DNA of 64,000 nt from a virus (Duplodnaviria > Caudoviricetes). The notes under the pieces were generated by a model, which was not told the DNA's origin, made no database searches, and was given only the letters and a program-made list of their open reading frames with translations. Location: positions 2,997 through 66,996 of IMG/VR virus record IMGVR_UViG_3300037722_000435. The stretch is one strand, 5' to 3'. Shown piece by piece: positions 5,456 through 62,623 of this stretch. A program made the translations under genes and the position numbers. Every line of letters starts with the position of its first letter. Within the stretch, counting starts at the first letter, position 1.

Positions 5456-6562
5456 ATGCCTAAAGACATAAGCCTACCTTATTTGGTAAAAGATGTTACT
5501 CTAATGTCCCCTGGAAAGTGGAATGGTTGGGAGTATAAAGTTGAAGATTTGAAAAACGCATTTGTAAATACCGACTGGGCGAGTCCTTATATTAGTTCTC
5601 TATTTCTAGACCATCCAAAGGACCCAAACAACGCAGCTAGTTCATGGATGGGTAAAGTAAAAAATCCTAAACAGTTAAATGATGGTACAATTAAGGGAGA
5701 TTTAGAGTTATGGGATGAGGACTTAGTTTACAAGTTAACAGTGGCAAAGGCAGGTTTTGGTGTGTCACCAAGAGTATTTGGAGATGAAGACACAGCTAAC
5801 CAAGTATTTATGGCTAAATCTTTTGATAATTTTTCTATAGTTTCTAAACCAGCCCAAGACACCGCAGTGTTAAATCTATCAGAAGTTCTCCCAATTCTTG
5901 ATGTGAGAACATTAAGTTCGTCAAATGAAAAAATTAAAGAAGAGATGAAGAAAAAAATGAAAGAAAAGATGGAAGAAGAGGACATGGAATATTCAGATTC
6001 ACCGAAAGGTAAAAAAAAGATGAAAGGAGGCAAAAAAGAAATGAGCGAAGAAGAAACATCGCAAGAAGTTGAGACAACTGAAGAAGACAAGGTAACTGAG
6101 TCTACAGCAGAACTCTCTGATGCGGATGTACTTAACATAATGAATTCTGACCTTGAAGGTTTTAATTCTTATGCTAAGGAAGCAAGAGTTTCCAATCCTA
6201 GTATTTCTCTACAGGTTCTAGCAAAGAACTTTCAATCCCACAAGGAAAGAATGAACTTTGTAGAAGAGCTTTCTGACTCTGAAGCAAATTCTCTAATAAA
6301 GAAATTGTTAGGAAGAATGGGAGTAAGTGAACCAACACAGAAGAATATTATGGTTTCTGACCCTGCTGTATCTGAATTGGCTAAAAAACTTACAAGTCTT
6401 GAGAAATCAATAAAAGACTTGGCAAGTCAGAAGAAAGAAAAAGTACCTGTCTCCAAGACAGCCGTACCACAAACTTCACAGCCAACTGCAAAAAATATGT
6501 TTGCTAGGAACAGCATAAGCGAAGGAACACAGGAACTCGCCAAAATGCTCAGAGGATATTAA
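5456..6562 (+). CDS. Capsid maturation protease fused to a scaffold-like coiled coil
   Basis: LFLDH and GVSP candidate catalytic His/Ser motifs. Charged helical C-terminus. Directly upstream of the MCP. TATA at 5427. Confidence 0.75.
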   Translation: MPKDISLPYLVKDVTLMSPGKWNGWEYKVEDLKNAFVNTDWASPYISSLFLDHPKDPNNAASSWMGKVKNPKQLNDGTIKGDLELWDEDLVYKLTVAKAGFGVSPRVFGDEDTANQVFMAKSFDNFSIVSKPAQDTAVLNLSEVLPILDVRTLSSSNEKIKEEMKKKMKEKMEEEDMEYSDSPKGKKKMKGGKKEMSEEETSQEVETTEEDKVTESTAELSDADVLNIMNSDLEGFNSYAKEARVSNPSISLQVLAKNFQSHKERMNFVEELSDSEANSLIKKLLGRMGVSEPTQKNIMVSDPAVSELAKKLTSLEKSIKDLASQKKEKVPVSKTAVPQTSQPTAKNMFARNSISEGTQELAKMLRGY

Positions 6563-7757: not shown

Positions 7758-7810
7758 GAACAAATTTATTTTTTTTATTTTTCTTCATTTATTATTTTGA
7801 AGAAAATCAT

Positions 7811-7898
7811 ACTCATAGAACTGAGGTTCAAAGAGATAGGAAGTCCCGTACTAAACGGTGAGTCGCCGAAAGGTTGAGTTCCTATTAATTCTGACTCA
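7811..7898 (+). ncRNA. Candidate structured leader RNA (three-way junction with a GAAA tetraloop)
   Basis: ATAGGAA(7836-42) pairs with TTCCTAT(7879-85), enclosing CCGT-ACTAA-ACGG and GCC-GAAA-GGT hairpins. Confidence 0.4.
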
Positions 7899-49159: not shown

Positions 49160-49987
49160 CTAAGCCATCTTTGTGTTCAACTGTCGTAATTTATGTTTTA
49201 AATCTATAACCTCCATTCTGTTTATCTCATTCTCCCATATCCTCATTACTTTATAACCTTTTGCATTAAGTTGTTTGGTTCTTAATTTATCTCGCCTCTT
49301 CTGATTCTTTTGTTTATCAGTTAGTTCGTCTGCTCCAAATATCTCAGTGTTACCATGCCAGTAATCTCCATCACATTCAATAATTAAGTTCATAGTAGGG
49401 ATATAAATATCACAGTGATAAGCATTATCTATCTCCATATATTTGTGTGGCACATAGAATATACCTAATATATTTAACAATTTCTGAATTTTCAATTCTA
49501 TAGAACTGTCTTGTTTTGGTATAATTATATGAGACATTCTCTCTTTAAATTTTTTTATATTAGATGGGGAGTTACTAATTGTAATCATCTTTTTTCGGAT
49601 TTTTTCTCTATGGTCATTAGACAAATTCCTTCCCTTTAATGCTAATGAAACTTTGTGATTATGCTCTCTCGTCTTAGGTTTGCCCTTCAAAGATTTAGAT
49701 ATATTATTCTTATGAGATACAGATAACTTTTTGCCTTTATGTACATCACTCAGCTTTAATCTGTGATCTGTAGCCCACCTTATACCTTTGTTCCATGAGG
49801 GTTTGCCTTTCTTAGAATTACTCATTTTTTCTCTTGTGTGAATAGACGGACTCCAACCTCTGTGAGATAGTCCATATTTTTCAACCCTTTTATCTTTTTC
49901 TTTTGTTAATCCTTTGTTCCAAGCAACTGCCCCATACCTTTTAAGAAGAGTTGTTCTCCATTTGTTGATGGTTTCTTTAGAACGCAT
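49160..49987 (-). CDS. NUMOD3-repeat endonuclease with a DUF559/Vsr-like domain
   Basis: WNKG and HTREKMS repeats. CDIYIP..NLIIECDGDYWH...D..RT..L...GYKVMRIWE. Confidence 0.88.
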   Translation of the reverse strand: MRSKETINKWRTTLLKRYGAVAWNKGLTKEKDKRVEKYGLSHRGWSPSIHTREKMSNSKKGKPSWNKGIRWATDHRLKLSDVHKGKKLSVSHKNNISKSLKGKPKTREHNHKVSLALKGRNLSNDHREKIRKKMITISNSPSNIKKFKERMSHIIIPKQDSSIELKIQKLLNILGIFYVPHKYMEIDNAYHCDIYIPTMNLIIECDGDYWHGNTEIFGADELTDKQKNQKRRDKLRTKQLNAKGYKVMRIWENEINRMEVIDLKHKLRQLNTKMA

Positions 49988-50462: not shown

Positions 50463-50726
50463 TTATAAATCTTTTGGTTGGAATCTTTGTCTTACTCTAT
50501 TTAAAAAACTCTGTGGAGTAAAGAAATCTTTACTGTCTTGAGAAACTTTTAAATTATTAGGAATGGATATGTTGTATTTCACTAAGATAATATTATCCAT
50601 TTGAACTAATATATAGTGCTTTTTACATAAGTATTTTGTTCTCAGTATGCCCTCTGCGTTTTTCTTGCATCTGGGGAACTCACATTTTTCTTTCTTTACT
50701 GTGTCATCTCTTTTCTGGTATTTCAT
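50463..50726 (-). CDS. Small Zn-finger-like protein
   Basis: CEFPRC...LCKKH. Confidence 0.6.
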   Translation of the reverse strand: MKYQKRDDTVKKEKCEFPRCKKNAEGILRTKYLCKKHYILVQMDNIILVKYNISIPNNLKVSQDSKDFFTPQSFLNRVRQRFQPKDL

Positions 50727-50781
50727 ATAAATAGTGTTTTTCGGATACCCAATCCTTTTAAGGTTGGGAGGAGAAAAACTT
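50721..50781. repeat. Palindromic element type R, copy 1
   Basis: 57/61 identical to 62213-62273. Hairpin GTTTTTC-GGATA-CCCAA..CCT/AGG..TTGGG-AGGA-GAAAAAC. Confidence 0.9.
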
Positions 50782-51516
50782 GCCCTCCGAGTTTAGTTTA
50801 GATTGGGATAATTCTTTTTGTATTCTTGAATTAGCGACTTCCACAAATTTAGGATTTAATTCTATTCCCACCCAATTCCGATTTAACTTTATTGAGGATA
50901 TTGCAACAGTTCCACTTCCAGCAAAAATATCAAGAACTAAATCCCCTTCAAAGGTTGTTGCTTTTATACATCTGTTTACTAATTCTTCTGGGAATGTTGC
51001 TGGATGTTCCTTATCTATTCTTGGAGGAATAGCCCAAATCTCTTGATATTGAAATGCCTCTTTATTAAATTTAGGAGTTTTTTGTTCTTTTGTAATCCAG
51101 AAAATATATTCTACAATAGGCATAAATCTAATTGGTTCAAGAACAGGACTATTTTTTCTATTCCAAATAATCATCTGCCTTACTATAAATTCGCTTAACC
51201 ATTCGTGAGGAAATATAACTCTATGATTTACTATTCTTGGTTTGTGATTGTAAAATATGCTTCCATCCTTTTTTAAAACTCTTAAACATTCCCTTAATAC
51301 TTTTTTCTGCCATTCCTGATATTCTGCTTCTGGCATATCATCCTTAAATCCCCCATAATCTATATTTGCTTTCTGCCAACTATCTGTCTTTCCACATTTT
51401 CTATTAGCAGAATGTTTGTTATAAGGAGGACTTGTAATTATACAATTTATACTTTCGTCTGGAAAAGTCTTTAAAATTTCTAACACATCGCCCTGATATA
51501 TTTTGTTTGTTTCCAT
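50758..51516 (-). CDS. Beta-class N4C/N6A DNA methyltransferase
   Basis: TSPPY catalytic motif before HPATFP and DIFAGSGT (SAM-binding). Confidence 0.92.
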   Translation of the reverse strand: METNKIYQGDVLEILKTFPDESINCIITSPPYNKHSANRKCGKTDSWQKANIDYGGFKDDMPEAEYQEWQKKVLRECLRVLKKDGSIFYNHKPRIVNHRVIFPHEWLSEFIVRQMIIWNRKNSPVLEPIRFMPIVEYIFWITKEQKTPKFNKEAFQYQEIWAIPPRIDKEHPATFPEELVNRCIKATTFEGDLVLDIFAGSGTVAISSIKLNRNWVGIELNPKFVEVANSRIQKELSQSKLNSEGKFFSSQP

Positions 51517-51522
51517 TTTCTT

Positions 51523-51562
51523 TAAGATACCCTGCCCTTTAGGGTATGGGAGTATGTCATTT
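51523..51562. repeat. Palindromic element type L, copy 1
   Basis: 33/40 identical to 62584-62623. Hairpin CCC-TGCCCT-TT-AGGGTA-T-GGG. Confidence 0.85.
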
Positions 51563-52149
51563 TAACTCACCATATTTGGTTTTTTCTTACTCTTATATTC
51601 ATCTTTTATAATAATAATTCCTTCTTTTTCTAATTCTTCTAACTCTTCTAAAGTCCTTTGGGCATGTTGAACTGTTGAGAAACTAACCTCTGTTTTCTCT
51701 TTGTTGAATAAATCAAGTAATTTACTTTGTGTATTTATTGAATTATCTAATGTCTTAACTAAGTTTTGTATATTGAAAAGTAATTCATTAAATCTTTTTC
51801 TGTCAGTATCTTCTAAAAGAGTATCTTTTCTTAACATATTTAAGAACTCTCTGATTTCATCTCTTAACTCGGTGATTATTTTAATATTTTCTTCGGATGT
51901 ATCTAATAAATTAAACAATGCCGTTTTGAATCTCTCCTTCATGTCTTTATCTTTTTCTAGAAAAATTGAACTAGTTATTGCAAACTGTTTAGTAATGGAT
52001 TCTACTGTGCTTGGTGCTGGTTTAAATCCAAATTTGTTTTCAATCTCTTGAGAGATTTGACTATTAGTTATACCCATAGCAACTAATTCGGCAATCTTGC
52101 CTAATACTTCAGGTTCTCGTATTCTATCAATTTTATCTTGCCTAGACAT
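51562..52149 (-). CDS. HTH plus coiled-coil protein (terminase-small-subunit-like architecture)
   Basis: LVAMGITNSQISQEI HTH-like start followed by long helices. Confidence 0.45.
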   Translation of the reverse strand: MSRQDKIDRIREPEVLGKIAELVAMGITNSQISQEIENKFGFKPAPSTVESITKQFAITSSIFLEKDKDMKERFKTALFNLLDTSEENIKIITELRDEIREFLNMLRKDTLLEDTDRKRFNELLFNIQNLVKTLDNSINTQSKLLDLFNKEKTEVSFSTVQHAQRTLEELEELEKEGIIIIKDEYKSKKKPNMVS

Positions 52150-53359
52150 TTTTTTCCACTAAATAATCCTTTTCATCAAAACTATACAATCTATTCTTTA
52201 TAAATTCTTCCTCTCCTAAATTGAAAAAATAATCTATCCATTTGAGTAAAGGAGTGGTTATACTCTTTCTCTTTGGATTCCGAGATTCTAACTTTTTTAT
52301 GAACTCCTTGTGTTTTTTAACTTCTTCTCTTAGTTTATTTTTATTTTCCGCCTCGTGAATATCGTCTATGAATTCGATTTCATTTAAAGTTTCTAATTTA
52401 TTCATCAATAGTTTCCTCCAATGTTCCTAAATCTTTCCTATATTTAGTCTTACTCTTTAAAAAATAGTGATTGGCTGTCAATTGTTCATAAATATAAATA
52501 GTTGAATACTCTGGACCGATTAATTCTCTGAGATAATGTATACTGCCTCCGCATTCGATTCTAAGGAAACCCATAGAGTCTAATTCTTCTCTAGTTAATA
52601 TTTGTCTATCACTCATTTAGTTTTTTCTCCAGATTTTCATATTCTTCCATTGTTTTCTCTATTTGTTTTATTAATTTTACTGTGTATTTCTCAGCATAAT
52701 ACAATCTAGAATAACCAATCTTACGAATAAATACTTTTCTATTGTAGTCAGTTACTTCATTAGCCATAAAATCTAAATATTTTTTAACCATCCACATAGA
52801 AATCCCTGAAAAGTAAGATACTTGCTTTTCTGTCAGGCCTTCTGGGTGATCCTTTAATACTTCATAAATTAACCTTCTTATTTCATTAGAATGTAACCTA
52901 ACGGCTCTTTTCTTAAATATTCTGTCTATTGTGGAAACTCTAAAAGTTCTGTTATGTAATTGGGGATTTCTTAATGACCATCTTTCAAGTCTTTCCTGAT
53001 TCTTTATTATAAATTCTTTAGGTTTAGCAATAAGAAAATTAAGTTTCTCTGTGTTCATTTGCTTTCCAGTATTAGTAATCTTCATCTATGCCCCTCGCTT
53101 CATCTTCAATCGCTTCTTTTTCTGTTTTTGTCACTACGCTTCCTATTGCATCAATTTGTTTCTTTATAAAATCAATCTTTGAATCTGTATCTTTTAAATA
53201 ATTATAAACATATCCCATGAAAGTAAAAGTCAATCCAATTACAATTCCAAATAAAGCATTGGAAACATCATGATATGTGAAAGTCCATCTTATTGCAGAC
53301 ATAATTGTCCCCGCTATTCCTATGATTATTATTGTTAGTGGTAGTTTGTGGGTTTTCAT
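52142..53359 (-). other. Coupled early genes (52142-52408, 52398-52616, wHTH-like 52609-53085, two-TM 53072-53359)
   Basis: Overlapping start and stop codons. 52609-53085 has IYEVLKDHPEGLTEKQVSYFSGIS. Confidence 0.6.
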
Positions 53360-53699
53360 TTCTTCAACTCCCCGATTATATCTTTCTTCGCCATAACTAT
53401 TTTAGAACCAATTCCCAGATACTTTTCAGTTTTGAAACCATATTTTATTAAAACATTCATTAATTCAGACAGAATATTATCTGTTACATCTGTTGTGGCT
53501 TTAATATTTATTACTGTCATTTTACTCCTTGTCCAGTAATTAAGTCATTCATTCTCTAGCCAACTCCCTTATTTCTTCATCAGTCATCTTAAATCTTTTA
53601 AGTTCAAACCAAGATAAACAATTTCTACATTCAAACTGTATCATTGAATTATCATTCTTCTTTAAGACAATTTCCATTAGTCTGCTACAATCAGGACAT

Positions 53700-55520
53700 T
53701 TAATCATGTTTCTCTCCTTGTTCTGAAACCTTACCGATTGCGAACAATTTACTTGCGATAGCTTGAATTACATTAACAGTCACAGCATTTCCCATCATTT
53801 TGTATCTTTGTGTGTCTGACATTTCTGTTATTGTGTAAATTGTCCTTTCTTGTTTCTCTTCCGATTTATGTGGTTCTCCTTGTTCCAATTGTCCTCTCTT
53901 CTGTGTAATTTCGTATGGCAACTTCTGCAAATTACCTGTAAATTTTCTAAAAAGTTGTTCAATTTGTTCCTGTCTTTGTGGTGAATATCTAAGTTTTCTT
54001 TCTTGCCACATTGAGAACATTCGGTTGCAATAATCAATTGCCTTGCTCTGCGATTCCCTTCTTGTGGTAATACATTTTCCTTCCATTTCCATTTGTATGC
54101 TTTCTTCATACAATCTCGGTTGCAGTATTTCATTCTTGAGAAGTGTAATAAACTCATTAAGTCCCCATTCTTTAATCTGTTCCTCTCCAATTGTTTCTTG
54201 CAATAAAGACAATATTTTAATGGAGTCGGTTTTCTTGGTTGTCCCATTAACCTTGTAATAGGTTTCAAGGTTTATAAAACTTTGTAACCCTCGCCTTGTC
54301 CAGTCTTTAGGAAAAGATTGCAAAAACTCACATTCTATAGGGGTTAATCTACGAATTTTATAATCAAGCTGAACAGCTTGATTATTTCCACTATCTAAAC
54401 AATAAGTTTCATCATATTTACTTATGTGCCCTGAACCACCAGCACTTGGATTCTTCTTTAGACTCGGTCTATCTGGGCTTCTTGTTTGAGTATTGTGAAC
54501 CAAAACTCTCTGAATATCTGTTTTTGTTAAAGTAAAACTCTCTTCTCCATTGTCTTTGAATCTTCTTCCGTTCTGTCTTTTTTCTAATCTATCAGGGGTG
54601 AGAACTGGAATTGCTATTTTTGGTGTGCAATCTCCACTCAACTTACTTGCTCCTGCTAAAGTTGGACTTATTCCCTCTTTCCCATAAATTCTAGAATGTT
54701 GTGACCTTGCTTGTTGTATTAATTCTATTGATTTCATATACTCTTTTGAACTCCCTTGTCTCCCGATTGCTTCTGTGATTGTAGGGTGTGTGATTTGTGT
54801 CTGCCCCCTACTTTCAATATATGTTCCGTTTGAGTCTGCTGTGATTCTTGAGTGGATTGTATTGGTAACCTCTTGGTGTCTTTGTAACTCATTATTCTTC
54901 TCGTTGATTCCTCCGAAAGGTAATATTTCTGGTCTACTTGTTCCTCTAAGACTTCCGATAATGAATACCCTCTCTCGGTTCTGGGGGACTCCATGAAATT
55001 TGCTGTTAAGAACCATCCACTGAACATCATACCCCAATTCTGAAAGCGTTTGAATGATGACTTTGAAAGTTTCCCCTTTTTCGTGATTAAGTAACCCCTT
55101 GACATTTTCAAGGAAAATAATCTTAGGTCTTTTAACTTTAACAATTCGCACAACCTCAAAAAAGAGAGTTCCTCGGGTATCTTGGAAACCTCTCCTCTTT
55201 CCAGCGATTGAGAATGCTTGACAAGGAAAGCCCCCACAGAGAATATCAAAGTCCGGTAATTCTCTCGGATTGATTTTTGTTGCATCTCCATAGTTTTTGA
55301 TGTTTGGGAATTTTGATTTAAGGAGTTCGCTTGCGTATTTATTGTTTTCGCTGAGTCCGACACAAGTAAATTGTTTTGGTGCCAATAGTTCCTGCTTAAA
55401 GTTGGGGCTATTTTTTTCAGACCCCCTTTGTTGTGACCTCTTGGTCTTTGATAAATCATTGGCTCCCTCAAATCCAAGTTCAAATCCTCCAACCCCTGTA
55501 AACATTGAAAAGTATTTCAT
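53700..55520 (-). CDS. C5-cytosine DNA methyltransferase with large insertions
   Basis: FTGVGG (I), GGFPCQAFS (IV), ENVKG (VI), QNRERVF (VIII), RRLTPIEC..LQSFP (IX), YKMMGNAV (X). Confidence 0.93.
   Translation of the reverse strand: MKYFSMFTGVGGFELGFEGANDLSKTKRSQQRGSEKNSPNFKQELLAPKQFTCVGLSENNKYASELLKSKFPNIKNYGDATKINPRELPDFDILCGGFPCQAFSIAGKRRGFQDTRGTLFFEVVRIVKVKRPKIIFLENVKGLLNHEKGETFKVIIQTLSELGYDVQWMVLNSKFHGVPQNRERVFIIGSLRGTSRPEILPFGGINEKNNELQRHQEVTNTIHSRITADSNGTYIESRGQTQITHPTITEAIGRQGSSKEYMKSIELIQQARSQHSRIYGKEGISPTLAGASKLSGDCTPKIAIPVLTPDRLEKRQNGRRFKDNGEESFTLTKTDIQRVLVHNTQTRSPDRPSLKKNPSAGGSGHISKYDETYCLDSGNNQAVQLDYKIRRLTPIECEFLQSFPKDWTRRGLQSFINLETYYKVNGTTKKTDSIKILSLLQETIGEEQIKEWGLNEFITLLKNEILQPRLYEESIQMEMEGKCITTRRESQSKAIDYCNRMFSMWQERKLRYSPQRQEQIEQLFRKFTGNLQKLPYEITQKRGQLEQGEPHKSEEKQERTIYTITEMSDTQRYKMMGNAVTVNVIQAIASKLFAIGKVSEQGEKHD
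53828..54247 (-). CDS. HNH endonuclease nested out of frame inside the C5 MTase gene
   Basis: CLYC, YCNRDC, CSQCG...DIHHKD...NLQVICRSCH. TATA at 54278-54271, 31 nt before ATG 54247. Confidence 0.85.
   Translation of the reverse strand: MGQPRKPTPLKYCLYCKKQLERNRLKNGDLMSLLHFSRMKYCNRDCMKKAYKWKWKENVLPQEGNRRARQLIIATECSQCGKKENLDIHHKDRNKLNNFLENLQVICRSCHTKLHRREDNWNKENHINRKRNKKGQFTQ
54734..55492 (-). CDS. Overlapping +1-frame ORF inside the C5 MTase gene (M.EcoHK31I beta-like)
   Basis: 252 open codons, including QRPRGHNKGG..IAPTL and SFKRFQNWGMMFSG..SLSEVLEEQVDQKYYLSE. Confidence 0.65.
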   Translation of the reverse strand: MEDLNLDLREPMIYQRPRGHNKGGLKKIAPTLSRNYWHQNNLLVSDSAKTINTQANSLNQNSQTSKTMEMQQKSIRENYRTLIFSVGAFLVKHSQSLERGEVSKIPEELSFLRLCELLKLKDLRLFSLKMSRGYLITKKGKLSKSSFKRFQNWGMMFSGWFLTANFMESPRTERGYSLSEVLEEQVDQKYYLSEESTRRIMSYKDTKRLPIQSTQESQQTQTEHILKVGGRHKSHTLQSQKQSGDKGVQKSI

Positions 55521-56203
55521 TTGACATTTCCTTTCTCCGTTACTTTATTCTCATCTTTTGAGTAATCCTTGTCTATAACTCTTTTAATCTCAATACCATT
55601 ATCTAATTTTGTAACTTCAAATTCATCTGGATTGACTACGTTTTCGCTCTGTTTATTGCACTCATCACATAAACCATCTATTCCACAAACCTTAGAATTT
55701 AAATCATACAATTCCCTACATCCTTTGCTCAATACCCCTATTTTTGGAATTGCCCCATTTTTTAATCTACCCTCCAATTTAGCCCAATCTTTTTCACTGA
55801 GTGCTTTCTGGGATGCGTTCTCTTTATGAACTCTTATTTCTCCATATAAGAAGTCAAAAGCATCACTCCAAGCAAGTTTGGTTTCTTCACCTTGTAATCT
55901 TCTTAAACCATCTTCTGCGACCATTCCTCTTAGTTCATCAATAATCTTTAGAACTTCATTTCTACAATTCTCCCATACTTCATAACAATGCTGATTAAAC
56001 CTACCTCTATTAAATTCTAACTTTTCTGGATTATCCCATGTAAAAATATCTTTGGGGTATGGATTTCTCATTCTAGAGAAAGGTGCAGAATTGGTGCTTT
56101 TTGTCTCATTATCTTTCAAAACATCTTTTAATTCCTTTATACATTCTGGAGCAACGCCCTTGTATCCCCATTTATTTGCCCATTCAATTATTCTTTCTTT
56201 CAT
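55517..56203 (-). CDS. Hypothetical early protein
   Basis: Coupled ORF containing RNPYPKDIF and a CxxxxC-x2-C cluster. Confidence 0.65.
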   Translation of the reverse strand: MKERIIEWANKWGYKGVAPECIKELKDVLKDNETKSTNSAPFSRMRNPYPKDIFTWDNPEKLEFNRGRFNQHCYEVWENCRNEVLKIIDELRGMVAEDGLRRLQGEETKLAWSDAFDFLYGEIRVHKENASQKALSEKDWAKLEGRLKNGAIPKIGVLSKGCRELYDLNSKVCGIDGLCDECNKQSENVVNPDEFEVTKLDNGIEIKRVIDKDYSKDENKVTEKGNVK

Positions 56204-56625
56204 TTTGCCCCCTCTGAGATTTCAAATATTTCATAAATCAATTCTTTTGAATTTGGGAATATCTTGATTAATTTCTCAATCTTTTCGTTTATAGAGTTGT
56301 CCGCAGGAGCAGTTTTCTGTGACCCATCTGAAGAGGACTTCAGCATCCTATTTCGGTTATCTGTGACCTGCCCATTTGGACTATGAACATTCTCCGATAT
56401 GATTTGTTTTAACTCTTTTTTAAACATTCTTTCAAATTTATCCCATCTTTCATCAACCCAAACAACCGTTTTATCTCTGCATAATATAAGTTTCTCAAGT
56501 ATCTCTTTCTTTTGGAGTTCAAGGGCTTCTTTAACATGAAGACATGATTTACATAAACCATCCTGCCCACATTTACTATCGTTTGGGTCTCGATAACCAC
56601 ATCCAAAATTTAAAGTGTCTTTCAT
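56200..56625 (-). CDS. Hypothetical protein ending in the shared 35-aa module
   Basis: C-terminus PADNSINEKIEKLIKIFPNSKELIYEIFEISEGAK. Confidence 0.65.
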   Translation of the reverse strand: MKDTLNFGCGYRDPNDSKCGQDGLCKSCLHVKEALELQKKEILEKLILCRDKTVVWVDERWDKFERMFKKELKQIISENVHSPNGQVTDNRNRMLKSSSDGSQKTAPADNSINEKIEKLIKIFPNSKELIYEIFEISEGAK

Positions 56626-56730
56626 TTCTCCCCCTCCGAGATTTCAAATATTTCATAAATCAATTCTTTTGAATTTGGGAATACTTTGATTAATTTCTCA
56701 ATCTTTTCGTTTATAGAGTTGTCCGCAGGA
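56200..56730. repeat. 109-bp direct repeat pair (56200-56308 and 56622-56730)
   Basis: 104/109 identical by manual alignment. Confidence 0.92.
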
Positions 56731-56942
56731 ACATTGGGAACCTCAGAGGACTTATCAAAATCCTGTTCGGCTTTTCTATTTAGTTTTCCTAATTTATCTT
56801 TTAATAATCCCCATTCATTGCCAAAAATTGATTTTTCTCTATTAAAATAATTCTTTCCAATTTTATTTTCCTCTCTGTCTTGTTCTTTTTCAATCTGTTT
56901 TATTCTCTTTTTTATACTATAAATCGTTAAAGTGTTATTCAT
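56622..56942 (-). CDS. Hypothetical protein ending in the shared 35-aa module
   Basis: Likely start MNNTL at 56942 (ATGA overlap). Confidence 0.65.
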   Translation of the reverse strand: MNNTLTIYSIKKRIKQIEKEQDREENKIGKNYFNREKSIFGNEWGLLKDKLGKLNRKAEQDFDKSSEVPNVPADNSINEKIEKLIKVFPNSKELIYEIFEISEGEK

Positions 56943-57097
56943 TTCTTCCCCTCCTCTTCGTTTAGTTTTTGACATTTAGGACATAAAGCTAGACCTTCCC
57001 ATTCTGTATCTTCATAACCACATACTAAGTCTCCTTCCTTTGTAATCTTTCCACATCTGTCACATTGGTTTGAATTTATATCCTGTTCAGTTCTCAT
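56939..57097 (-). CDS. 52-aa Zn-ribbon microprotein
   Basis: CDRCG...LCPKC. ATGA overlaps at both ends. Read manually. Confidence 0.65.
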   Translation of the reverse strand: MRTEQDINSNQCDRCGKITKEGDLVCGYEDTEWEGLALCPKCQKLNEEEGKK

Positions 57098-57255
57098 TTC
57101 TTCCCCCCACATTGACATTTCTCAGCATATTTCTCACTCCTCTTTTTAAGTTTCTCACTCCTCTTTTTAAGTTTCTCACTCCACTTTTTATATTCCTCAC
57201 TCCACTCTTTATTTTTCTCACTCCACTCTTTACATTTCTCACAATTATGTTTCAT
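57094..57255 (-). CDS. 53-aa heptad-repeat microprotein encoded by a 21-bp tandem repeat
   Basis: MKHNCEKCKEWSEKNKEWSEEYKKWSEKLKKRSEKLKKRSEKYAEKCQCGGKK, with a GAGGGG RBS. Confidence 0.7.
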   Translation of the reverse strand: MKHNCEKCKEWSEKNKEWSEEYKKWSEKLKKRSEKLKKRSEKYAEKCQCGGKK

Positions 57256-57654
57256 TTCTTCCCCTCTGATGTTTTTGTTTAATATGAACTCCTAAATTAT
57301 ATTTCACAGCAGACTCACTTCCACCCCTAATCTCTTGTTTACATTTAGGACATCTTTCTGAATATTGCACTCTCTCAATTGTGCTAGTTGTTTTCTTCAT
57401 AGTACTAACAGACAGATAGACTATTTAAATGTTTCTATGTTATTACATTGTTGCATTATCTACTAAAACCTACTAATTTTGTTTGAATTAGTAATCAATA
57501 TATTTATTCTAAATGAAATTCCTTAATAGAGTTAAAATGTTCTATATCTTCTTTACTTAACTCCCTGGTGTGTTTAGATTTTAAATTAATTATTTTCTTT
57601 TTGTCTAAATCAACGAGATGCTCAGATCCTTTAATCAACATTTTAAATTTCATT

Positions 57655-57888
57655 TTAACCTATGGCAACAGAAAGTTTACAACCACAAGCACATATTCCT
57701 TTAGCAAACTTTCGTATATTTCCTTTTCTTATTTGTTTTTCTTCTATAATTGGATTTAAGACTAATACTTTCTTTTTATCCCTCATACAATAGGCAAAAT
57801 ACTCTTTTTCCATTAGTTTATTGAGTAATATGTCTTTAAATAACTTTCTATACCCCTGATTTTTCAATATTTTCCATAGCATCTGCAA
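57655..57888 (-). CDS. Hypothetical Cys-containing protein
   Basis: YCMR...GICACGC. Confidence 0.5.
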   Translation of the reverse strand: MQMLWKILKNQGYRKLFKDILLNKLMEKEYFAYCMRDKKKVLVLNPIIEEKQIRKGNIRKFAKGICACGCKLSVAIG

Positions 57889-58294
57889 TTAATGTAATTG
57901 GGCTCACACCTAAACGCATACCCCATTGTTTAGCTATTCTCTCTACGCTAACATCATCATTTTCTAATATTTTCCTTTGTAATGCGGATATGGCCCCTGG
58001 TTTCTTCTGCTGCTTTTCCTTTAACCATTTTTGATATTTAATTATATTGTTTGCGTATTCTTGGTTTTTCTGTTCCTCTTTTCTTAATTCTTCCCTCATT
58101 TCTTTTATTCTGTTATTACTCTTAGATAACTGATGAATTGGGTTTAAAGTCTCGGCTTGTTGCATAATTAAAAATTCTATATAATTACTATCCTTCAATC
58201 CATAAAAATTCCCACCCTCCTTCAGTTTATCAATTGCTTCTGTACTTAAACTAAATCCTTTCCTTATCCATTCTTCTTTTCTGTATTTGGGCAT
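57848..58294 (-). CDS. RHH-like regulator with a coiled coil
   Basis: RKGFSLSTEAIDKLKE...SNYIEFLI. Confidence 0.55.
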   Translation of the reverse strand: MPKYRKEEWIRKGFSLSTEAIDKLKEGGNFYGLKDSNYIEFLIMQQAETLNPIHQLSKSNNRIKEMREELRKEEQKNQEYANNIIKYQKWLKEKQQKKPGAISALQRKILENDDVSVERIAKQWGMRLGVSPITLIADAMENIEKSGV

Positions 58295-58427
58295 TTTAGG
58301 TTTAAATTAGTATCAAAAGAGTATGTTTAATATTTAAATGTATTGAAATTTATAAAGACATAAAAACATAAAATAAAACATAAAAACATAAAATAAAATA
58401 ATATATCATCTAGAAAAAGAACCAATC

Positions 58428-59072
58428 TCATAATCCAGAAATTTCCACATTATTTGTAACAGTTTTTATCACATCTTTTCTGGACAAAATATTTGGATTA
58501 TCTCTCTTTGAGTCAAATTTAGGTAAATAGGGGATTTTAAACTTATGATAGTGTTTTCCATCAAATAATAACATACTCCCCAAAGGCATATTTAAGACTG
58601 CGCTGCCTAATTCCTCTCCTTTATAATTCAAACAAATTGTCTTATACCTTGATCCATTGATAAAGTCCCCTATTGTTGATTTAGTAAATAAATAAATACT
58701 TATCTTCCCACATAAGAATTTCTTATAGTTTTCAGGAATTCCAGAGAGAATGATAATATTATTATTATGTGCAATTAAACGGAAAGTTCGTTCTATACTT
58801 CTTCTTTTCTTGCGGTCATCCAGGTCCAACAAACTTGCCACCTCATCAATTATTACCACAGAGTCTTTAATTAATTCGGCTTCTTCTAAGGAATATATTT
58901 TAGTTTCCCCTAAATTTGACTTTAAACCATAGGAAAATAGATTAAAATTAAACGATTTCTTTAACTCACTTATAAAATAATATAAAATATTACTCTTTGC
59001 AGTGTTTACATCTCCAGCTAAAGCTATTACCTTAGGATTATTAAACAAATTTTCAATCTTTTTATCCAACAT
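58428..59072 (-). CDS. P-loop ATPase with a degenerate Walker A motif
   Basis: VIALAGDVNTAKS and VVIIDE. Confidence 0.7.
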   Translation of the reverse strand: MLDKKIENLFNNPKVIALAGDVNTAKSNILYYFISELKKSFNFNLFSYGLKSNLGETKIYSLEEAELIKDSVVIIDEVASLLDLDDRKKRRSIERTFRLIAHNNNIIILSGIPENYKKFLCGKISIYLFTKSTIGDFINGSRYKTICLNYKGEELGSAVLNMPLGSMLLFDGKHYHKFKIPYLPKFDSKRDNPNILSRKDVIKTVTNNVEISGL

Positions 59073-60392
59073 AGCTAATCTCCTTTTTACTGGGAATTGT
59101 ATTCATATTTAAAATAGATTCATTTTTTAACAAATTAAATTTGGTTTTCTCTAATATATGAATAGCGTTGGGGTAGGGTAATCTACAATCAGAGATAAAA
59201 GACTGTATAAATACCTCTGTCGTGAAGATCCTGGCTTGTAAACTAGACTTACCTATTTTTTTGAATAATTCAAGATAGTCTGGTTTAATGGATTTTAAAA
59301 GTGCTTCAGTGTCCTTAATTGCCTTGTCAATATTATCTTCAGAAGACTCTGACACATATGCTAACTTTTTAGATTTATCTTTCTTTATCATAAAAGGGCG
59401 GAGGATGAAAGATAAGAGAATCACATCCATCAGGCGTTTTACCTCCCCCTTTATTTTCCTGACTATTAAGAATCTTTAAATTAACTAATTTGTCAAAGTA
59501 TTTTCTCTCGTGTTCGTTTAAATTAACACTTCCATCTGTTTGCAAATTATGTAATAAACCTAGCATAGTATCATAATAAAATGACTCTCCCCTGTCATTC
59601 TTAAATATATAAAGTGGTTTTAAATATAATTTATTCAGTTTTGCCATTTTCCCCCCTTAAATTAAAGTAACAAGTAGAACACACATTAATTTCTCTCTGG
59701 GTTTCTTTATCTATAATAATCAAATTTCCAGAGGACTTACCGTCGCATCCTTCAATATTACAATTTTCAGCTTTCATAAGTCCTCCTCCGAACTCAAAAT
59801 AATATACTTTCCTGGATCTATTCTTGTACTCGGAGGCAATACCTCATGCTCTCCAGTTTCTTTATTAAATACAACTAATTCACCCATTTAAACCTCCAAA
59901 CAGATGGGGGAAGACCCCCCACCCAAAAAATCTCCTCAACACATCTGCCTAAAGACACATAAGGAGTTAATATTGTTTTCATAATTCTATTAAACATCTC
60001 TACTTTATATACTTTTCTTACCCTTTAAGAGTTACGAAAAGTCTTATTCTTCCCCCCTTTAAATTTAAATGGCAAACTTCTTAATCTGTTTTCCTCTTCT
60101 AATCTGTTAATTCTCTTTCTCAGTCTTAATATTTCTATCTTGGTCTCCAGGAGACTTAATTTAATTAGCTGAATAACATCATTTGCGTTTAAAACTTTAA
60201 CATTTCTCATCTAATTCTCTGCCTCCCATCTTCTTGACCATAAATTGATTTATTCTTTTTCTTTATTCGTAGTTTAAGATAATTCATTTTATTAGTTAAA
60301 TATTTATGATGCAGTGCACAAGAAGAACAGTATCTATTTAATCCATAGTTCTTTATTACTTGATCACAACATAAACACTTTTTAATCTTCAT
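59062..60392 (-). other. Small hypothetical early genes (59062-59430, 59375-59647, 60025-60210, 60207-60392 and sub-60-aa ORFs)
   Basis: Co-oriented ORFs with GGAGG/GGGGG RBS and ATGA overlaps. Confidence 0.55.
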
Positions 60393-60530
60393 AAGTAACC
60401 CCCCTTAAACTCCCTTTTTCTAAGTTTAAAATAAAGACTCTTAATAAAAAACTTCCCATTATCCAACCGATTAATTGATAAAGGGAATAAAGGAAAATGT
60501 TTAAAAAACCCCTATTCCCAAATATTAAAC

Positions 60531-60863
60531 TCATCTTTCCCCCCCTAAATAAATAAGAAAACTTAAAAGCGCGACAATGACAATCAAAAAGGAAATTGAA
60601 TAAGCTTTATATTCTGTCCATTTTTCTATATTATTTATTATTTCTTTATTTTCTGAATGCTTATAAGTGTACATCCCTCCAGAATTTAGAAAATTAACTT
60701 TATCTAAACCGACAATACATATATAATCATCATCCACATATTTTTTTAAATCTTCTTTATGGCTTAATTCGTGCATAACTATTGAAGTAATTAAAACGCC
60801 GTTAAATAGAAATACAACTAAGATAAACTTACTTACTATTTGTGTTATTTTCTTTATATTCAT
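60531..60863 (-). CDS. Small membrane protein with HExxH (possible metallopeptidase)
   Basis: TM followed by VMHELSH, then EYKAY and a second TM. Confidence 0.55.
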   Translation of the reverse strand: MNIKKITQIVSKFILVVFLFNGVLITSIVMHELSHKEDLKKYVDDDYICIVGLDKVNFLNSGGMYTYKHSENKEIINNIEKWTEYKAYSISFLIVIVALLSFLIYLGGER

Positions 60864-60929
60864 CTGTTTTCCTGCGTTTACAGTTCGCCAACTTTGAATA
60901 TAAAACCCAAAAAAAATAAATTGGGTTCG

Positions 60930-61971
60930 TTAAATTCCTATTTGTTTAAGTCGTCTGTTTATCTCTGGCTTTTCTTCGTCTGGTAAGCTATCCCAATACT
61001 CCATTAAGATATTAAACCCTTTTTGATAGTCTGGGTTTGGTTCTTTATATGCTTTAAAGTCTTTTATCATCTCTTTAACTATCTCTGCTTTTTCTCTGTC
61101 TAAAATTGGAAGTTCTATATATCCCCTTCTTAATTCGTTACTTATTAACATTTTTTTCTCAATAAGGCGATTTAAAAAACTTTCAATTACACTTAAAACT
61201 TCTTCTTCGTTTTCTTTGGTTATAAATTGTTTATCTATTATCATTAGTAATTTAAGAGTTTTCTCACTGTTTCCCTTCTGACAGATTTAAACCCATGTTC
61301 GTTTAACAACTGATTAAAACCTTTTATATCAGTAATTGGTAGAATGTAGTGCCACGCATAAGATTTTATTTCTTGCGATTCTTTTTTTGTTTTCATTTGT
61401 AACCATCTAAAGAATAATTAAAACCTGCTTCTTCGTTAAGTGCTTTAAATATATCTCTCTTCTCCTGGTCTGTTCGATCCTCCCATAAAGATTTATTTCT
61501 TAAAAGCACGTCAAAAGCTCTTTTATAGTTTTTTATCATCTTTAACTCTTCCCCCTTTCAATTCTTTAATATGATTCCGCCTTAATTTGTTAAATTCTTT
61601 TCTAACTAAAATTAAATACTCTTTGTGATATTTGCGGCTTAAAGTATGTTTGGCTTTACTTCTTGCCTTGCTTCTTATTTTCTCCTGTTCTTCTCTGCTT
61701 AATTCTTTTCTATATTTTTTAATATGTTTCATCTTTTCACCTGTTCCACTTTCCAAATAAAAAAAGGAAAGAAAAAAAATAAATTTATTTATAAAATCTT
61801 TGTACTCTTCGCACCAGTTAAATAAATCACTATTTGGCTTGTGTCGCTTTGGTCATAACCTAAACTCTCGAAAGCATCTTTAAGCTCTTCTATACCTCGT
61901 TCTGTATAACCTTGTTTATCTTTTTTGTTGTATTTATTTAAAATCTCCTTTGCTCGTTCTTTTGTTATCAT
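60930..61971 (-). other. Small hypothetical early genes (60930-61244, 61523-61756, 61789-61971)
   Basis: Co-oriented short ORFs. Confidence 0.55.
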
Positions 61972-62212
61972 TTTACCCCTCCTTTCATTTTTAAAATATC
62001 AATTTCTAAACTATTAATTATAAAATCACAAAATAATATCTTTTGATCTGTGTCCATAGTATTAATTAACTCTAGTTTAATCTTCTCAGTTTGTTTAATT
62101 AGTTCGTTTAATTTAATCATTCCAAACCCCCAAATATAATTAACTTAAGTTCTTTCATTCTTTCAAATTCAGAATCGCTTAAAGGCCTTTCTAAAGAAAC
62201 ATTACTTAATGC

Positions 62213-62273
62213 TTTCATATAAATCGTGTTTTTCGGATACCCAAGCCATTTATGGTTGGGAGGAGAAAAACTT
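62213..62273. repeat. Palindromic element type R, copy 2
   Basis: 57/61 identical to 50721-50781, with a compensatory pair change. Confidence 0.9.
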
Positions 62274-62297
62274 CCTCGTTGTATTTAGTTGTGAACA

Positions 62298-62567
62298 TTA
62301 TGAACACCTCTTCAACTTTTGAATTTCTTTATGAGCTATCTTTAGTGCTTCTTGCTTAGATTTAAACTCACCCAAGTTAAACCCTCTTCCTTCATCGGAT
62401 GAAAAAACAACATAATCTACTTTTTTCTCTCCAGCCATTTGCCTTTTTGAAACACTTACTGATTTTTGTTCATAAAAAGGTTTATCTAAATCTGTTTGAA
62501 AATATATATCTCCGTTTCTTCTTACTACTTTTCTCCAACATTTGTTTTCTTGTGTTACTTTTGCCAT
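62298..62567 (-). CDS. 89-aa hypothetical protein (cargo between the L and R palindromes)
   Basis: GGAG RBS directly after element L. Confidence 0.7.
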   Translation of the reverse strand: MAKVTQENKCWRKVVRRNGDIYFQTDLDKPFYEQKSVSVSKRQMAGEKKVDYVVFSSDEGRGFNLGEFKSKQEALKIAHKEIQKLKRCS

Positions 62568-62583
62568 ATTAGTTTTTCTCCGT

Positions 62584-62623
62584 TAGGATACTCCACCCTT
62601 TAGGGTGTGAGAGGATGTCATTT
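62584..62623. repeat. Palindromic element type L, copy 2
   Basis: CTC-CACCCT-TT-AGGGTG-T-GAG, covarying with 51523-51562. Confidence 0.85.

Follow-up and report, generated by a model that had tools for sequence, protein, structure and literature searches.

Hairpin elements bracketing two unrelated genes

In the 64,000-nt stretch of viral DNA analysed here (the window), a DNA methyltransferase gene and an unrelated gene for an 89-aa protein are bracketed by the same two hairpin elements, L and R, in the same order. Why should unrelated genes share such borders? A sequence-only reading had proposed that L and R are IS200/IS605-type transposon ends that mobilise passenger genes in trans, and our analysis supports this. 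L and R are very probably the right end (RE) and left end (LE), respectively, of a single-strand transposon lineage of the IS200/IS605 family (IS200 group, with a Y1/HUH TnpA) that occurs in DPANN archaea and their viruses. The units at 50727-51560 (cassette 1) and 62219-62621 (cassette 2, 403 bp) and a third L-methyltransferase-R unit (cassette 3), which lies outside the window near the start of the 67-kb record, within its first 850 bases (contig positions 234-842), would then be non-autonomous, lacking tnpA and carrying their passenger on the bottom strand. The earlier left/right naming was inverted with respect to IS convention, under which the top strand, presumably the active one, is the + strand of the window.

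Cassette 1
50721-50726, + strand: target motif T-TTCAT flanking LE; the bottom strand reads ATGAAA, the start of a displaced 87-aa gene (50463-50726)
50727-50792, + strand: LE (earlier R); LE covariance model 59.4 bits, E = 1.3e-12
50758-51516, - strand: cargo 1, 252-aa N6/N4 DNA methyltransferase (PF01555, E = 2.5e-45)
51522-51560, + strand: RE (earlier L); RE covariance model 78.3 bits, E = 1.3e-11
51561-51575, - strand: right flank, with the stop codon of a 195-aa gene and GGTGAG (direct reading)

Cassette 2
62213-62218, + strand: target motif T-TTCAT flanking LE; the bottom strand reads ATGAAA, the start of a 33-codon ORF (62117-62218)
62219-62284, + strand: LE (earlier R); LE covariance model 58.8 bits, E = 1.8e-12
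62298-62567, - strand: cargo 2, 89-aa protein of unknown function, no Pfam or PHROG match
62583-62621, + strand: RE (earlier L); RE covariance model 65.7 bits, E = 1.9e-9

A pattern scan and a repeat search both confirmed the positions of the four elements. The pattern GATACYC-N12-26-GAGKA, which captures the GATAC-stem-GAGKA frame common to L and R, occurs four times in the whole window (50744-50772, 51526-51554, 62236-62264 and 62587-62615), always on the + strand; 0.28 matches were expected, and four were reached in none of 100 shuffled sequences. The R pair forms a 78-nt repeat (86% identity) and the L pair a 41-nt repeat (83% identity), and covariance models detected no further LE or RE copies in the window. 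Direct reading bore out the compensatory changes described earlier. The R copies differ at four positions in their first 61 nt, namely one flank base, the bulge base (T/G) and a compensatory T-A to A-T pair, and the L copies differ by the pair changes C-G/T-A, T-A/C-G and G.T/A-T. Also present are the 12-codon mini-ORFs read in L (MTYSHTLKGRVS / MTSSHTLKGGVS) and, immediately following R, the ATGAAA. Fold energies of the single copies are unexceptional (z -0.7 to -1.7).

The LE of cassette 1 has an outer helix (GTTTTTC 50736-50742 / GAAAAAC 50773-50779), a conserved loop (GGATAC / GAGGA) and an inner hairpin with a bulged T (50748-50768), followed by CCCTCC at 50783-50788, which is GGAGGG on the bottom strand. 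It also encodes the last ~13 codons and the stop of the methyltransferase, with the stop codon (50758-50760) in the hairpin loop. The resulting tail, KLNSEGKFFSSQP, is found in an unrelated Dam-family cargo as well. The RE of cassette 1 reads GATAC-stem-TTTA-stem-GAGTATGTCAT and ends at 51560, with a 12-codon mini-ORF on its bottom strand; that of cassette 2 ends in GAGGATGTCAT at 62621. For neither cassette did we find a close homologue elsewhere, their ends alone having matches. The closest relatives of cargo 1 (55% identity) lack the transposon ends, and an atlas search with cargo 2 returned nothing above threshold and sub-threshold leads only.

Association with Y1/HUH transposases

The search proposed earlier for the same hairpins beside tnpA was successful, both in genomes of DPANN archaea and in contigs of related viruses. 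Rather than occurring independently of each other and of HUH transposase ends, the two hairpin types together bound Y1_Tnp (PF01797) genes in archaeon AR20 (complete genome), a Nanoarchaeota MAG and a viral-type element of 1444 bp. The Y1_Tnp E-values are 5.7e-33 (AR20), 6.8e-28 (locus L038) and 1.9e-33 (viral locus L012). The AR20 and L038 elements read TCAT/...GGATAC-hairpin-GAGGAAT...tnpA...GATAC-hairpin-GAGTATCAT/, with slashes at the element boundaries. The autonomous 1444-bp element in locus L071 consists of an RE, four small ORFs, tnpA and an LE. Units of tnpA, methyltransferase and LE are present in loci L051 and L082, a C-terminal remnant of tnpA lies between RE and methyltransferase in L014, and TnpB is present in L039.

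Recurrence and cargo of the cassettes

Other cargo between L and R, which the sequence-only reading had also suggested looking for, was found: at least 18 RE...LE cassettes of 282-1444 bp carry unrelated genes, and DNA similarity across the 18 is limited to ~60 nt of the RE and ~75 nt of the LE. The framed genes encode 70-299 aa and include N6_N4, Dam, C5 and Eco57I-like methyltransferases as well as small unknown proteins. A radical SAM gene is the cargo of one cassette (L019), and in L018, a locus that ends before the RE side, a PAPS reductase gene adjoins an LE.

Whole cassettes recur between unrelated flanks. Loci L013 and L061 share a single block of 586 bp (88% identity; 5716-6290, predicted cassette 5720-6286), L076 and L092 share 292 bp (4607-4896, predicted 4609-4890), and cassette 3 of the window virus aligns with L064 at 231-848 (predicted 234-842). 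In all three pairs similarity stops 2-6 bases from the predicted ends. The element is also multi-copy and breaks assemblies, with tnpA fragments accumulating at contig ends: in three MAGs, identical LE copies lie at 9, 6 and 5 contig ends, and 11 tnpA fragments, mostly at contig ends, come from one of these MAGs. The cassettes apparently serve to ferry DNA-modification genes between viruses whose hosts are tiny DPANN archaea.

Target site and predicted transposition

Repeat identity within single MAGs stops exactly at the LE target motif. ATGAA, the complement of TTCAT (a start codon and two bases), adjoins 63 of 83 distinct LE copies, and ATGA adjoins 80 of the 83. An ORF of at least 40 codons follows 62 of 84 LE copies, compared with 31% for random ATGAA. 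As the complement of TTCAT is ATGAA, an insertion that remains viable falls exactly between the ribosome-binding site of a gene and its start codon, antisense to the gene, and this antisense insertion puts bottom-strand cargo in operon sense. The RE terminus is (G/A)TCAT and the target TTCAT, so that TCAT at both boundaries fits a 4-bp target duplication or similar left and right cleavage motifs alike. The hairpins at both ends are imperfect, subterminal and in the same orientation, without terminal inverted repeats; ~21 nt separate the target from the LE hairpin and ~9 nt the RE hairpin from the element end.

That the cassettes still move today, and where their transposase comes from, are inferences. 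By analogy with IS608, TnpA supplied in trans by a host IS, a provirus or a co-infecting virus would bind the top-strand hairpins and cut after TTCAT and after (G/A)TCAT. The single-stranded circle thus freed, with a predicted junction of ...GTATGTCAT/ATAAAT..., would be pasted 3' of another TTCAT. Joining the right flank of cassette 1 to position 50726 would reconstruct an empty site, GGTGAGTTAAA/ATGAAA, with a normal SD-spacer-start junction. A search for relatives of the flanks found none, and no natural empty allele, circle junction or presence/absence polymorphism was seen for either window cassette; the flanking 195-aa gene has no relatives among 5.8 billion proteins, and a scan for the RE-LE junction pattern gave one chance match.

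Expression signals in the ends

Both ends carry candidate translation signals. The LE outer stem is 4-8 bp long in 58 of 60 copies, and GGAGG usually lies beside the outer helix. An SD-like motif abuts the outer stem in 36 of the 60 copies (14 have no SD-like motif), with a median SD-to-AUG spacing of 8 nt once the hairpin is removed. At the other end, the RE mini-ORF has 12-13 codons in 13 of 19 cassettes, and its stop codon lies 3-15 nt ahead of the cargo start, a spacing suggestive of translational coupling of mini-ORF and cargo. Conservation of the mini-ORF ATG may mainly reflect its complementarity to TCAT, the RE cleavage motif.

Judging by conservation, the SD orphaned by an insertion could now drive the mini-ORF encoded by the RE, and the LE could provide a new GGAGG for the displaced gene, its covarying hairpin looping out to leave the SD ~8 nt from the displaced start codon. 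The combined signals would leave the insertion nearly harmless and the cargo expressed. It is quite possible, and we put it forward tentatively, that an IS200 lineage has become a plug-in gene cassette system: it would target the complement of start codons, reuse the orphaned ribosome-binding site through a leader mini-ORF in the RE, restore translation of the displaced gene through an SD and hairpin borne by the LE, and so insert almost silently while a transposase acting in trans shuttles anti-restriction DNA-modification genes between DPANN archaea and their viruses. The roles given to SD bridging and mini-ORF coupling are inferred from conservation only.

Fold, strand and alternative explanations

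One alternative, which we consider unlikely, is that the units arrived by IS200-type transposition and are now immobile, their ends being kept only as translation signals of the cargo and the downstream gene. We found no TnpA or TnpB in the virus's 67-kb record (estimated to be 65% complete), which extends the absence noted earlier for the window; both ends are deeply interwoven with start, stop and SD signals; and decayed ends are known elsewhere, with half an RE in L011 and an RE without LE in L023. These observations would suit immobile ends, but all three units retain the hairpins, bulge, GATAC/GAGKA frames and terminal TCAT intact, and their ends match those of the autonomous L071 element except for compensatory changes (in the RE of cassette 2, compensatory pairs are the only differences). 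The LE of cassette 1 is 97.5% identical over 81 nt to that of an unrelated Dam cassette in another virus (L013). Top-strand wobble pairs may also point to selection on single-stranded DNA over sense RNA: the G.T pair in the RE of cassette 1 is possible on the + strand only. Inner hairpins fold better on the top strand in 34 of 35 LE and 8 of 11 RE copies (RNA energy parameters applied to DNA elements).

In T4-type phages, promoter-stem-loop (PeSL) cassettes flank shuffled genes, and the hairpin modules might similarly be portable expression signals whose genes are exchanged by homologous recombination, with no transposase. The ends are indeed much more conserved than the cargo, and the C-terminal codons encoded by the LE are common to unrelated cargo genes. 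We nevertheless regard this explanation as improbable: the same ends bound tnpA and act as a multi-copy IS in cellular genomes, a fixed pentanucleotide is present at one element end only, and whole cassettes recur with sharp boundaries in unrelated flanks.

Still less probable is that L and R are purely RNA elements without DNA mobility, such as a UTR hairpin, processing site, translational operator or leader peptide for DNA-modification genes. Their orientation is always sense to the flanking genes, and they contain stop codons in loops, SD-like GGAGG, anti-SD-like CCUCC and the mini-ORF. The tie to tnpA and the boundary-exact homology in unrelated contexts largely refute this explanation, which accounts for neither of them nor for the pile-ups at contig ends; moreover, the G.T pair and the better folding belong to the antisense (top) strand. 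Rfam gave no match in the window at gathering thresholds, and around cassette 1 chance-level matches only, at E up to 10.

Covariation is pronounced at both ends. The LE helices covary to a degree reached in none of 500 shuffles (pair 17-54 is CG in 25, GC in 16 and UA in 11 copies), and in the RE seven of eight pairs show double changes. Integron-like attC sites or CRISPR-repeat mimics, which the single-strand-type hairpins with a bulged base and internal loop and the R1/R2 sequences starting GTTTTTC and ending GAAAAAC bring to mind, can be dismissed almost entirely: the variable outer helix and conserved internal loop of the LE are the reverse of attC, whose conserved outer-helix R'/R'' boxes are absent, no integrase occurs among the neighbours examined, there is no regular repeat-spacer array or Rfam CRISPR match, and the hairpins flank tnpA instead.

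Comparison with known systems

We conclude that the cassettes very probably belong to an IS200-type lineage. IS608 has its hairpins ~19 nt from the target at LE and ~10 nt from the end at RE, a geometry similar to that of the window elements. Like other members of the IS200 group (IS200, IS608, ISDra2; Y1/HUH TnpA, "peel-and-paste"), the present element has imperfect subterminal hairpins in the same orientation, no terminal inverted repeats, an LE abutting a specific pentanucleotide, ends that bound Y1_Tnp genes, and multiple copies. Insertion of the left end of IS200/IS605 elements is always on the 3' side of a four- or five-nucleotide sequence, which for IS608 is TTAC (PMC5027513). The window units differ from the group in lacking tnpA and tnpB and carrying passengers on the bottom strand. 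Their target is the complement of a start codon, the LE has an extra covarying outer helix and an outward-facing SD, LE and RE share a 5' frame, and TCAT stands at both boundaries.

Most descriptions portray IS200/IS605 elements as minimal, with tnpA and sometimes tnpB, and regard the non-autonomous relatives as free of genes. The ends described here enclose no fewer than eight kinds of passenger gene, for the most part DNA methyltransferases of unrelated families, which points to a simple route for anti-restriction gene exchange among viruses of DPANN archaea. The shared ends also offer an independent host-virus link for an uncultured virus with almost no protein relatives, and operon engineering could borrow the cassette as a compact natural design for gene insertion.

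Palindrome-associated transposable elements (PATEs) of Haloquadratum are short and are not known to carry genes, whereas the ends described here frame functional genes of 70-299 aa, in viruses. Like the present cassettes, PATEs are non-autonomous IS200/IS605 derivatives that retain nothing but the ends of such elements, and mobilisation in trans is presumed (PMC3119063; also mentioned in PMC10055086). REP/REPIN sequences with RAYT (TnpA-REP) likewise have hairpins recognised by a Y1 HUH enzyme, high-copy dispersal and species-specific stems (PMC8266576). They carry no cargo and have no fixed target and, whether single or paired, their hairpins show no LE/RE asymmetry; in the present system the associated TnpA is of IS200 type and is encoded within the element itself.

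IStrons are IS200/IS605-type elements with a device that spares the interrupted gene (PMC4227781). They use group I intron self-splicing, whereas the device proposed here is a replacement SD with a looped-out hairpin, inserted upstream of the start codon and not within the gene. Phage T4 genes 38 and 25 have split ribosome-binding sites in which a hairpin between SD and AUG gives functional spacing; these are single native genes, whereas the present arrangement travels with the end of a transposon and is repeated at dozens of genes unrelated to one another. If the proposal is true, targeting start codons while bringing along a replacement ribosome-binding site would give transposons a new means of sparing their targets, akin in spirit to that of the IStrons.

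Paired hairpins and cassettes in the window virus

The source record is a 66,996-bp linear IMG/VR virus with a completeness estimate of 65%, and the window covers its positions 2997-66996. Genes at 44-64 kb of the window are on the minus strand, small and tightly packed. The sequence-only reading had described two unrelated genes in this region, each bracketed by the same two palindromes, L and R, and this pairing is confirmed. The pattern GATACYC-N12-26-GAGKA matches all four elements, all on the + strand (0.28 expected; 0/100 shuffles reach four), and a repeat search recovers both pairs (R: 78 nt, 86%; L: 41 nt, 83%). Direct reading of the sequence also bears out the compensatory changes and altered bulge base, the 12-codon mini-ORFs in L and the ATGAAA right after R. 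A pattern search of the whole record gave two additional matches, on the opposite strand close to the contig start, and covariance models found three copies of each end in the record and none beyond. Named after the transposase-bearing elements described below, R is the left end (LE) and L the right end (RE) of three cassettes.

Cassettes of the window virus
50727-51560 (834 bp), top strand +: cassette 1; RE terminates ...GAGTATGTCAT at 51560, methyltransferase on the bottom strand
50721-50726, +: target motif TTTCAT of cassette 1, adjoining LE
62219-62621 (403 bp), top strand +: cassette 2; 89-aa gene without assigned function
62213-62218, +: target motif TTTCAT of cassette 2, adjoining LE
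234-842 of the virus's contig G000, outside the window (locus L002), other strand: cassette 3; L, 178-aa NPPY (Eco57I-like) methyltransferase, R, ATGAAA of the next gene

At the DNA level, cassette 3 shares 89% identity with a cassette of IMGVR_UViG_3300028581_002462 and 68% with one from a Nanoarchaeota bin. As the earlier reading held, no TnpA or TnpB was found in the window, nor was any transposase found anywhere in the 67-kb record.

Two other features of the window were noted. A 21-nt unit (…TTTCTCACTCC…) is repeated six times in tandem at 57106-57263 (68-100% identity) within the small-gene region, with heptad-repeat coding or iterons as candidate roles. Just downstream of cassette 1, a 275-aa protein (49160-49987, minus) carries NUMOD3, DUF559 and Vsr-like nuclease signatures, which suggest a homing-type endonuclease.

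Link to transposase genes

The same hairpins were found at transposase genes. The R hairpin is 5' of a Y1_Tnp gene in the complete archaeal genome AR20 (tnpA at L089 733-1128) and at locus L038 (E 5.7e-33 and 6.8e-28, respectively), and at L039 it lies immediately 5' of a 382-aa TnpB (OrfB_IS605 and Cas12f1-like TNB). On the transposase strand, the left part of the AR20 element reads TCAT | TACAT... outer arm - GGATAC - hairpin - GAGGAAT - outer arm - CCTCC ... tnpA, and the right part, after tnpA, reads GGATAC - hairpin (loop TTTA) - GAGTATCAT | flank; L038 is organised identically. The proposal that L and R are transposon ends is thus supported, since they bound tnpA, and this layout reverses its left/right naming: in an IS200-group element, R corresponds to the left end and L to the right. 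Hairpin context shared by both ends explains the GATAC...GAGKA frame common to L and R. A MAG with six contig-end LE copies (model search) also contains 11 tnpA fragments, mostly contig-terminal.

A second, virus-type TnpA (185-188 aa) shares 27-31% identity with the cellular TnpA, and is encoded by the bottom strand of elements that have virus-type ends.

Elements with virus-type tnpA or its remnant
L071: 1444-bp element; RE, four small ORFs, tnpA (1979-2533), LE
L051 and L082: tnpA-methyltransferase-LE
L012: tnpA, 171-aa gene, LE
L014: last ~40 tnpA codons kept, between RE and an N6/N4 methyltransferase

The L014 remnant shows how deletion can give rise to non-autonomous cassettes with cargo. 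One 55-aa ORF of the autonomous L071 element (1648-1815) has, by eye, a ribbon-helix-helix (Arc/CopG-like) look, and this putative assignment recalls the IS605 Arc accessory proteins (bioRxiv 10.64898/2026.09.24.754181).

Several further transposase genes were noted. A tnpA copy at L032 (430-861, minus) is interrupted in frame by a TAG and a TGA codon, one of which replaces a conserved Trp; a copy in another MAG (L097), 80% identical, has an open reading frame, so the L032-type gene has probably decayed rather than been recoded. At the contig end of L051, part of the tnpA N-terminus recurs in inverted orientation (4455-4721 vs 3766-4332), possibly as a fold-back artefact of assembly and possibly as a genuine inverted duplication. 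The viral contig L013 has a TnpB-like gene (270-1001, minus) ~5 kb away from its Dam cassette. The tnpA genes in the bin of the three-cassette contig L035 were rejected as partners, being part of other IS605 elements, which lack these ends.

Structure of the ends

The LE outer helix covaries strongly among 53 copies: pair 17-54 is CG in 25, GC in 16 and UA in 11, and pair 18-53 is AU in 19, CG in 15, GC in 9 and UA in 8. This covariation score was reached by 0/500 shuffles, and pairing falls from 85% to 46% or less when the partners are slid. The first five pairs of the LE inner stem were set by the search pattern, and their invariance is hence uninformative. In RE (23 copies), double changes occur at 7/8 pairs and 93% of cells pair.

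A pure split ribosome-binding site or riboswitch-like RNA was retained solely as a secondary function of LE. An attC site and a mimic of a CRISPR repeat (GTTTTTC...GAAAAAC) were both rejected on the variable outer helix and the discovery of tnpA. Rfam gave zero matches at gathering thresholds across the whole window, and only chance-level matches around cassette 1 when E values up to 10 were allowed.

Under RNA energy parameters, 34/35 LE and 8/11 RE inner hairpins fold better on the top strand, and a G.T pair in RE1 is possible on the + strand only. Both are soft evidence, compatible with a top strand that is recognised in single-stranded DNA form. A search by hand for a guide-cleavage pairing rule between GATAC and TCAT found none that was consistent.

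Distribution of the ends

Covariance-model searches and scans of related viruses and DPANN genomes recovered the hairpins in both. Besides the window virus, an exact-pattern scan of IMG/VR found 13 viral contigs with the R-type element and four with the L-type; a blastn search of the phage collection with the region returned zero matches. A scan of one prokaryotic genome per species found ~55 genuine R copies, mostly in MAGs of DPANN archaea (Woesearchaeota, Nanoarchaeota, Pacearchaeota) and the complete AR20 genome, with a minority in Poribacteria and Patescibacteria bins. The Poribacteria loci L028, L040 and L081 (two of them complete chromosomes) carry well-formed LE-type elements with GGAG, outer helix, core hairpin and ATG, and the end family therefore extends beyond archaea. 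From the shared transposon ends we infer that the hosts of the window virus are DPANN archaea; its capsid protein has just one weak match, to an Altiarchaeum virus.

Numerous cellular R copies lie within 40 bases of a contig start or end. Identical copies occur within single MAGs at nine, six and five contig ends (three MAGs), as is typical where a repeat present in many copies breaks the assembly, and in each case identity ends immediately past ATGAA. ORFs of 190 aa and 352 aa that precede cellular copies are not conserved cargo; they result from reading tnpA and tnpB in antisense, and Rfam found no rRNA that would make these regions rRNA flanks.

Evidence for movement of cassettes as units

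Eighteen RE...LE cassettes were delimited (282-1444 bp). All-against-all blastn limits DNA similarity among them to ~60 nt at RE and ~75 nt at LE, with alignments that begin and end at the predicted boundaries and cargo DNA that is unrelated. Where cargo is homologous, the entire cassette is in common and the flanks are not.

Cassettes with homologous cargo
L013 (virus) and L061 (Nanoarchaeota bin): common block of 586 bp, 88%, 5716-6290; predicted cassette 5720-6286
L076 and L092: common block of 292 bp, 4607-4896; predicted cassette 4609-4890
Cassette 3 and L064: alignment 231-848; predicted cassette 234-842
Cassette 3 and L022: 89% identity; predicted cassette 234-842

Clustering shows that cargo families recur, and genes downstream of cassettes hardly ever group together. 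The LE target is ATGAA at 63/83 distinct copies and ATGA at 80/83, and an ORF of at least 40 codons begins there in 62/84, compared with 31% at randomly chosen ATGAA sites of this DNA. At L049 (~7788-7860, minus), an LE stands immediately next to the ATGA in the RE of a second element, as either two elements in tandem or a joint resembling a circle junction. This suggests that TCAT at the RE terminus is itself usable as a target, in which case such an arrangement is expected.

Joining the flanks at the boundaries of cassettes 1 and 3, as reconstructions rather than observed alleles, yields GGTGAGTTAAA|ATGAAA and TGGGAGAAGAAAA|ATGAAA, which are ordinary gene junctions with an SD-like motif 5-8 nt ahead of the start codon; that of cassette 2, CTGGCGGAA|ATGAAA, is less ideal. 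For the flank gene at 51562-52149, searches of IMG/VR and of 5.8 billion proteins returned no relatives. An excised circle would carry the junction ...GTATGTCAT|ATAAAT..., and a scan for direct LE-RE junctions gave a single match, GC-rich and attributable to chance. The proposal that these ends mobilise passenger genes is supported, with left and right exchanged; activity and strand specificity are predictions from sequence.

Cargo genes

Other cargo was found between the ends, including several methyltransferase families, a Radical SAM protein and small proteins.

Cargo families
N6_N4 methyltransferase: window, L014
Eco57I-like NPPY methyltransferase: cassette 3
Dam: L010, L013, L035, L061
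C5 methyltransferase: L020, L024
PAPS reductase: L018, beside LE; the locus end cuts off the RE side
Radical SAM: L019
HNH motif: L008, ORF overlapping LE at the locus end, putative cargo only
Proteins with no assigned family (70-127 aa): several cassettes

The 89-aa cargo received no function from PHROGs or the atlas. Neither LE nor RE was found at relatives of the cassette 1 methyltransferase (L101-L107) or of the 89-aa protein (L108). The nearest methyltransferase relatives (55% identity) are in viruses without these ends, so this gene family is not tied to the cassette.

Putative translation signals in the ends

On the bottom strand, LE comprises in order an SD-like motif, an outer arm, a conserved loop and hairpin, the other outer arm, 5-9 nt and the ATG of the displaced gene. 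The outer stem is 4-8 bp in 58/60 copies and is adjoined by GGAGG, GGAG, GAGG or GGGGG in 36/60; several further copies have TTTTGAGG, scored as AGGA by the script. With the hairpin excluded, the median SD-to-AUG spacing is 8 nt. Cargo ORFs usually extend into LE and end at the TAA of the hairpin loop, and unrelated methyltransferases therefore have a common LE-encoded tail, ...KLNSEGKFFSSQP.

The RE bottom strand opens with ATGA, the complement of TCAT. A mini-ORF of 12-13 codons is present in 13/19 cassettes, its stop 3-15 nt ahead of the cargo start, and some cassettes have an additional SD in this gap. As the complement of the predicted cleavage motif, the mini-ORF ATG would be conserved with or without a role in translation.

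These arrangements suggest translational roles for both ends. Insertion would part the target gene from its own ribosome-binding site; the orphaned site would drive cargo translation via the leader mini-ORF in RE, and LE would supply a substitute site for the displaced gene.

Comparison with known elements

The evidence supports the elements being non-autonomous, cargo-carrying IS200/IS605 derivatives with start codons as their target, and the cassettes appear to carry replacement translation signals. We did not find IS200-type cassettes carrying methyltransferases or other genes in viruses described in the literature; this search was incomplete and priority is uncertain. PATEs and IS605 accessory genes have been described.
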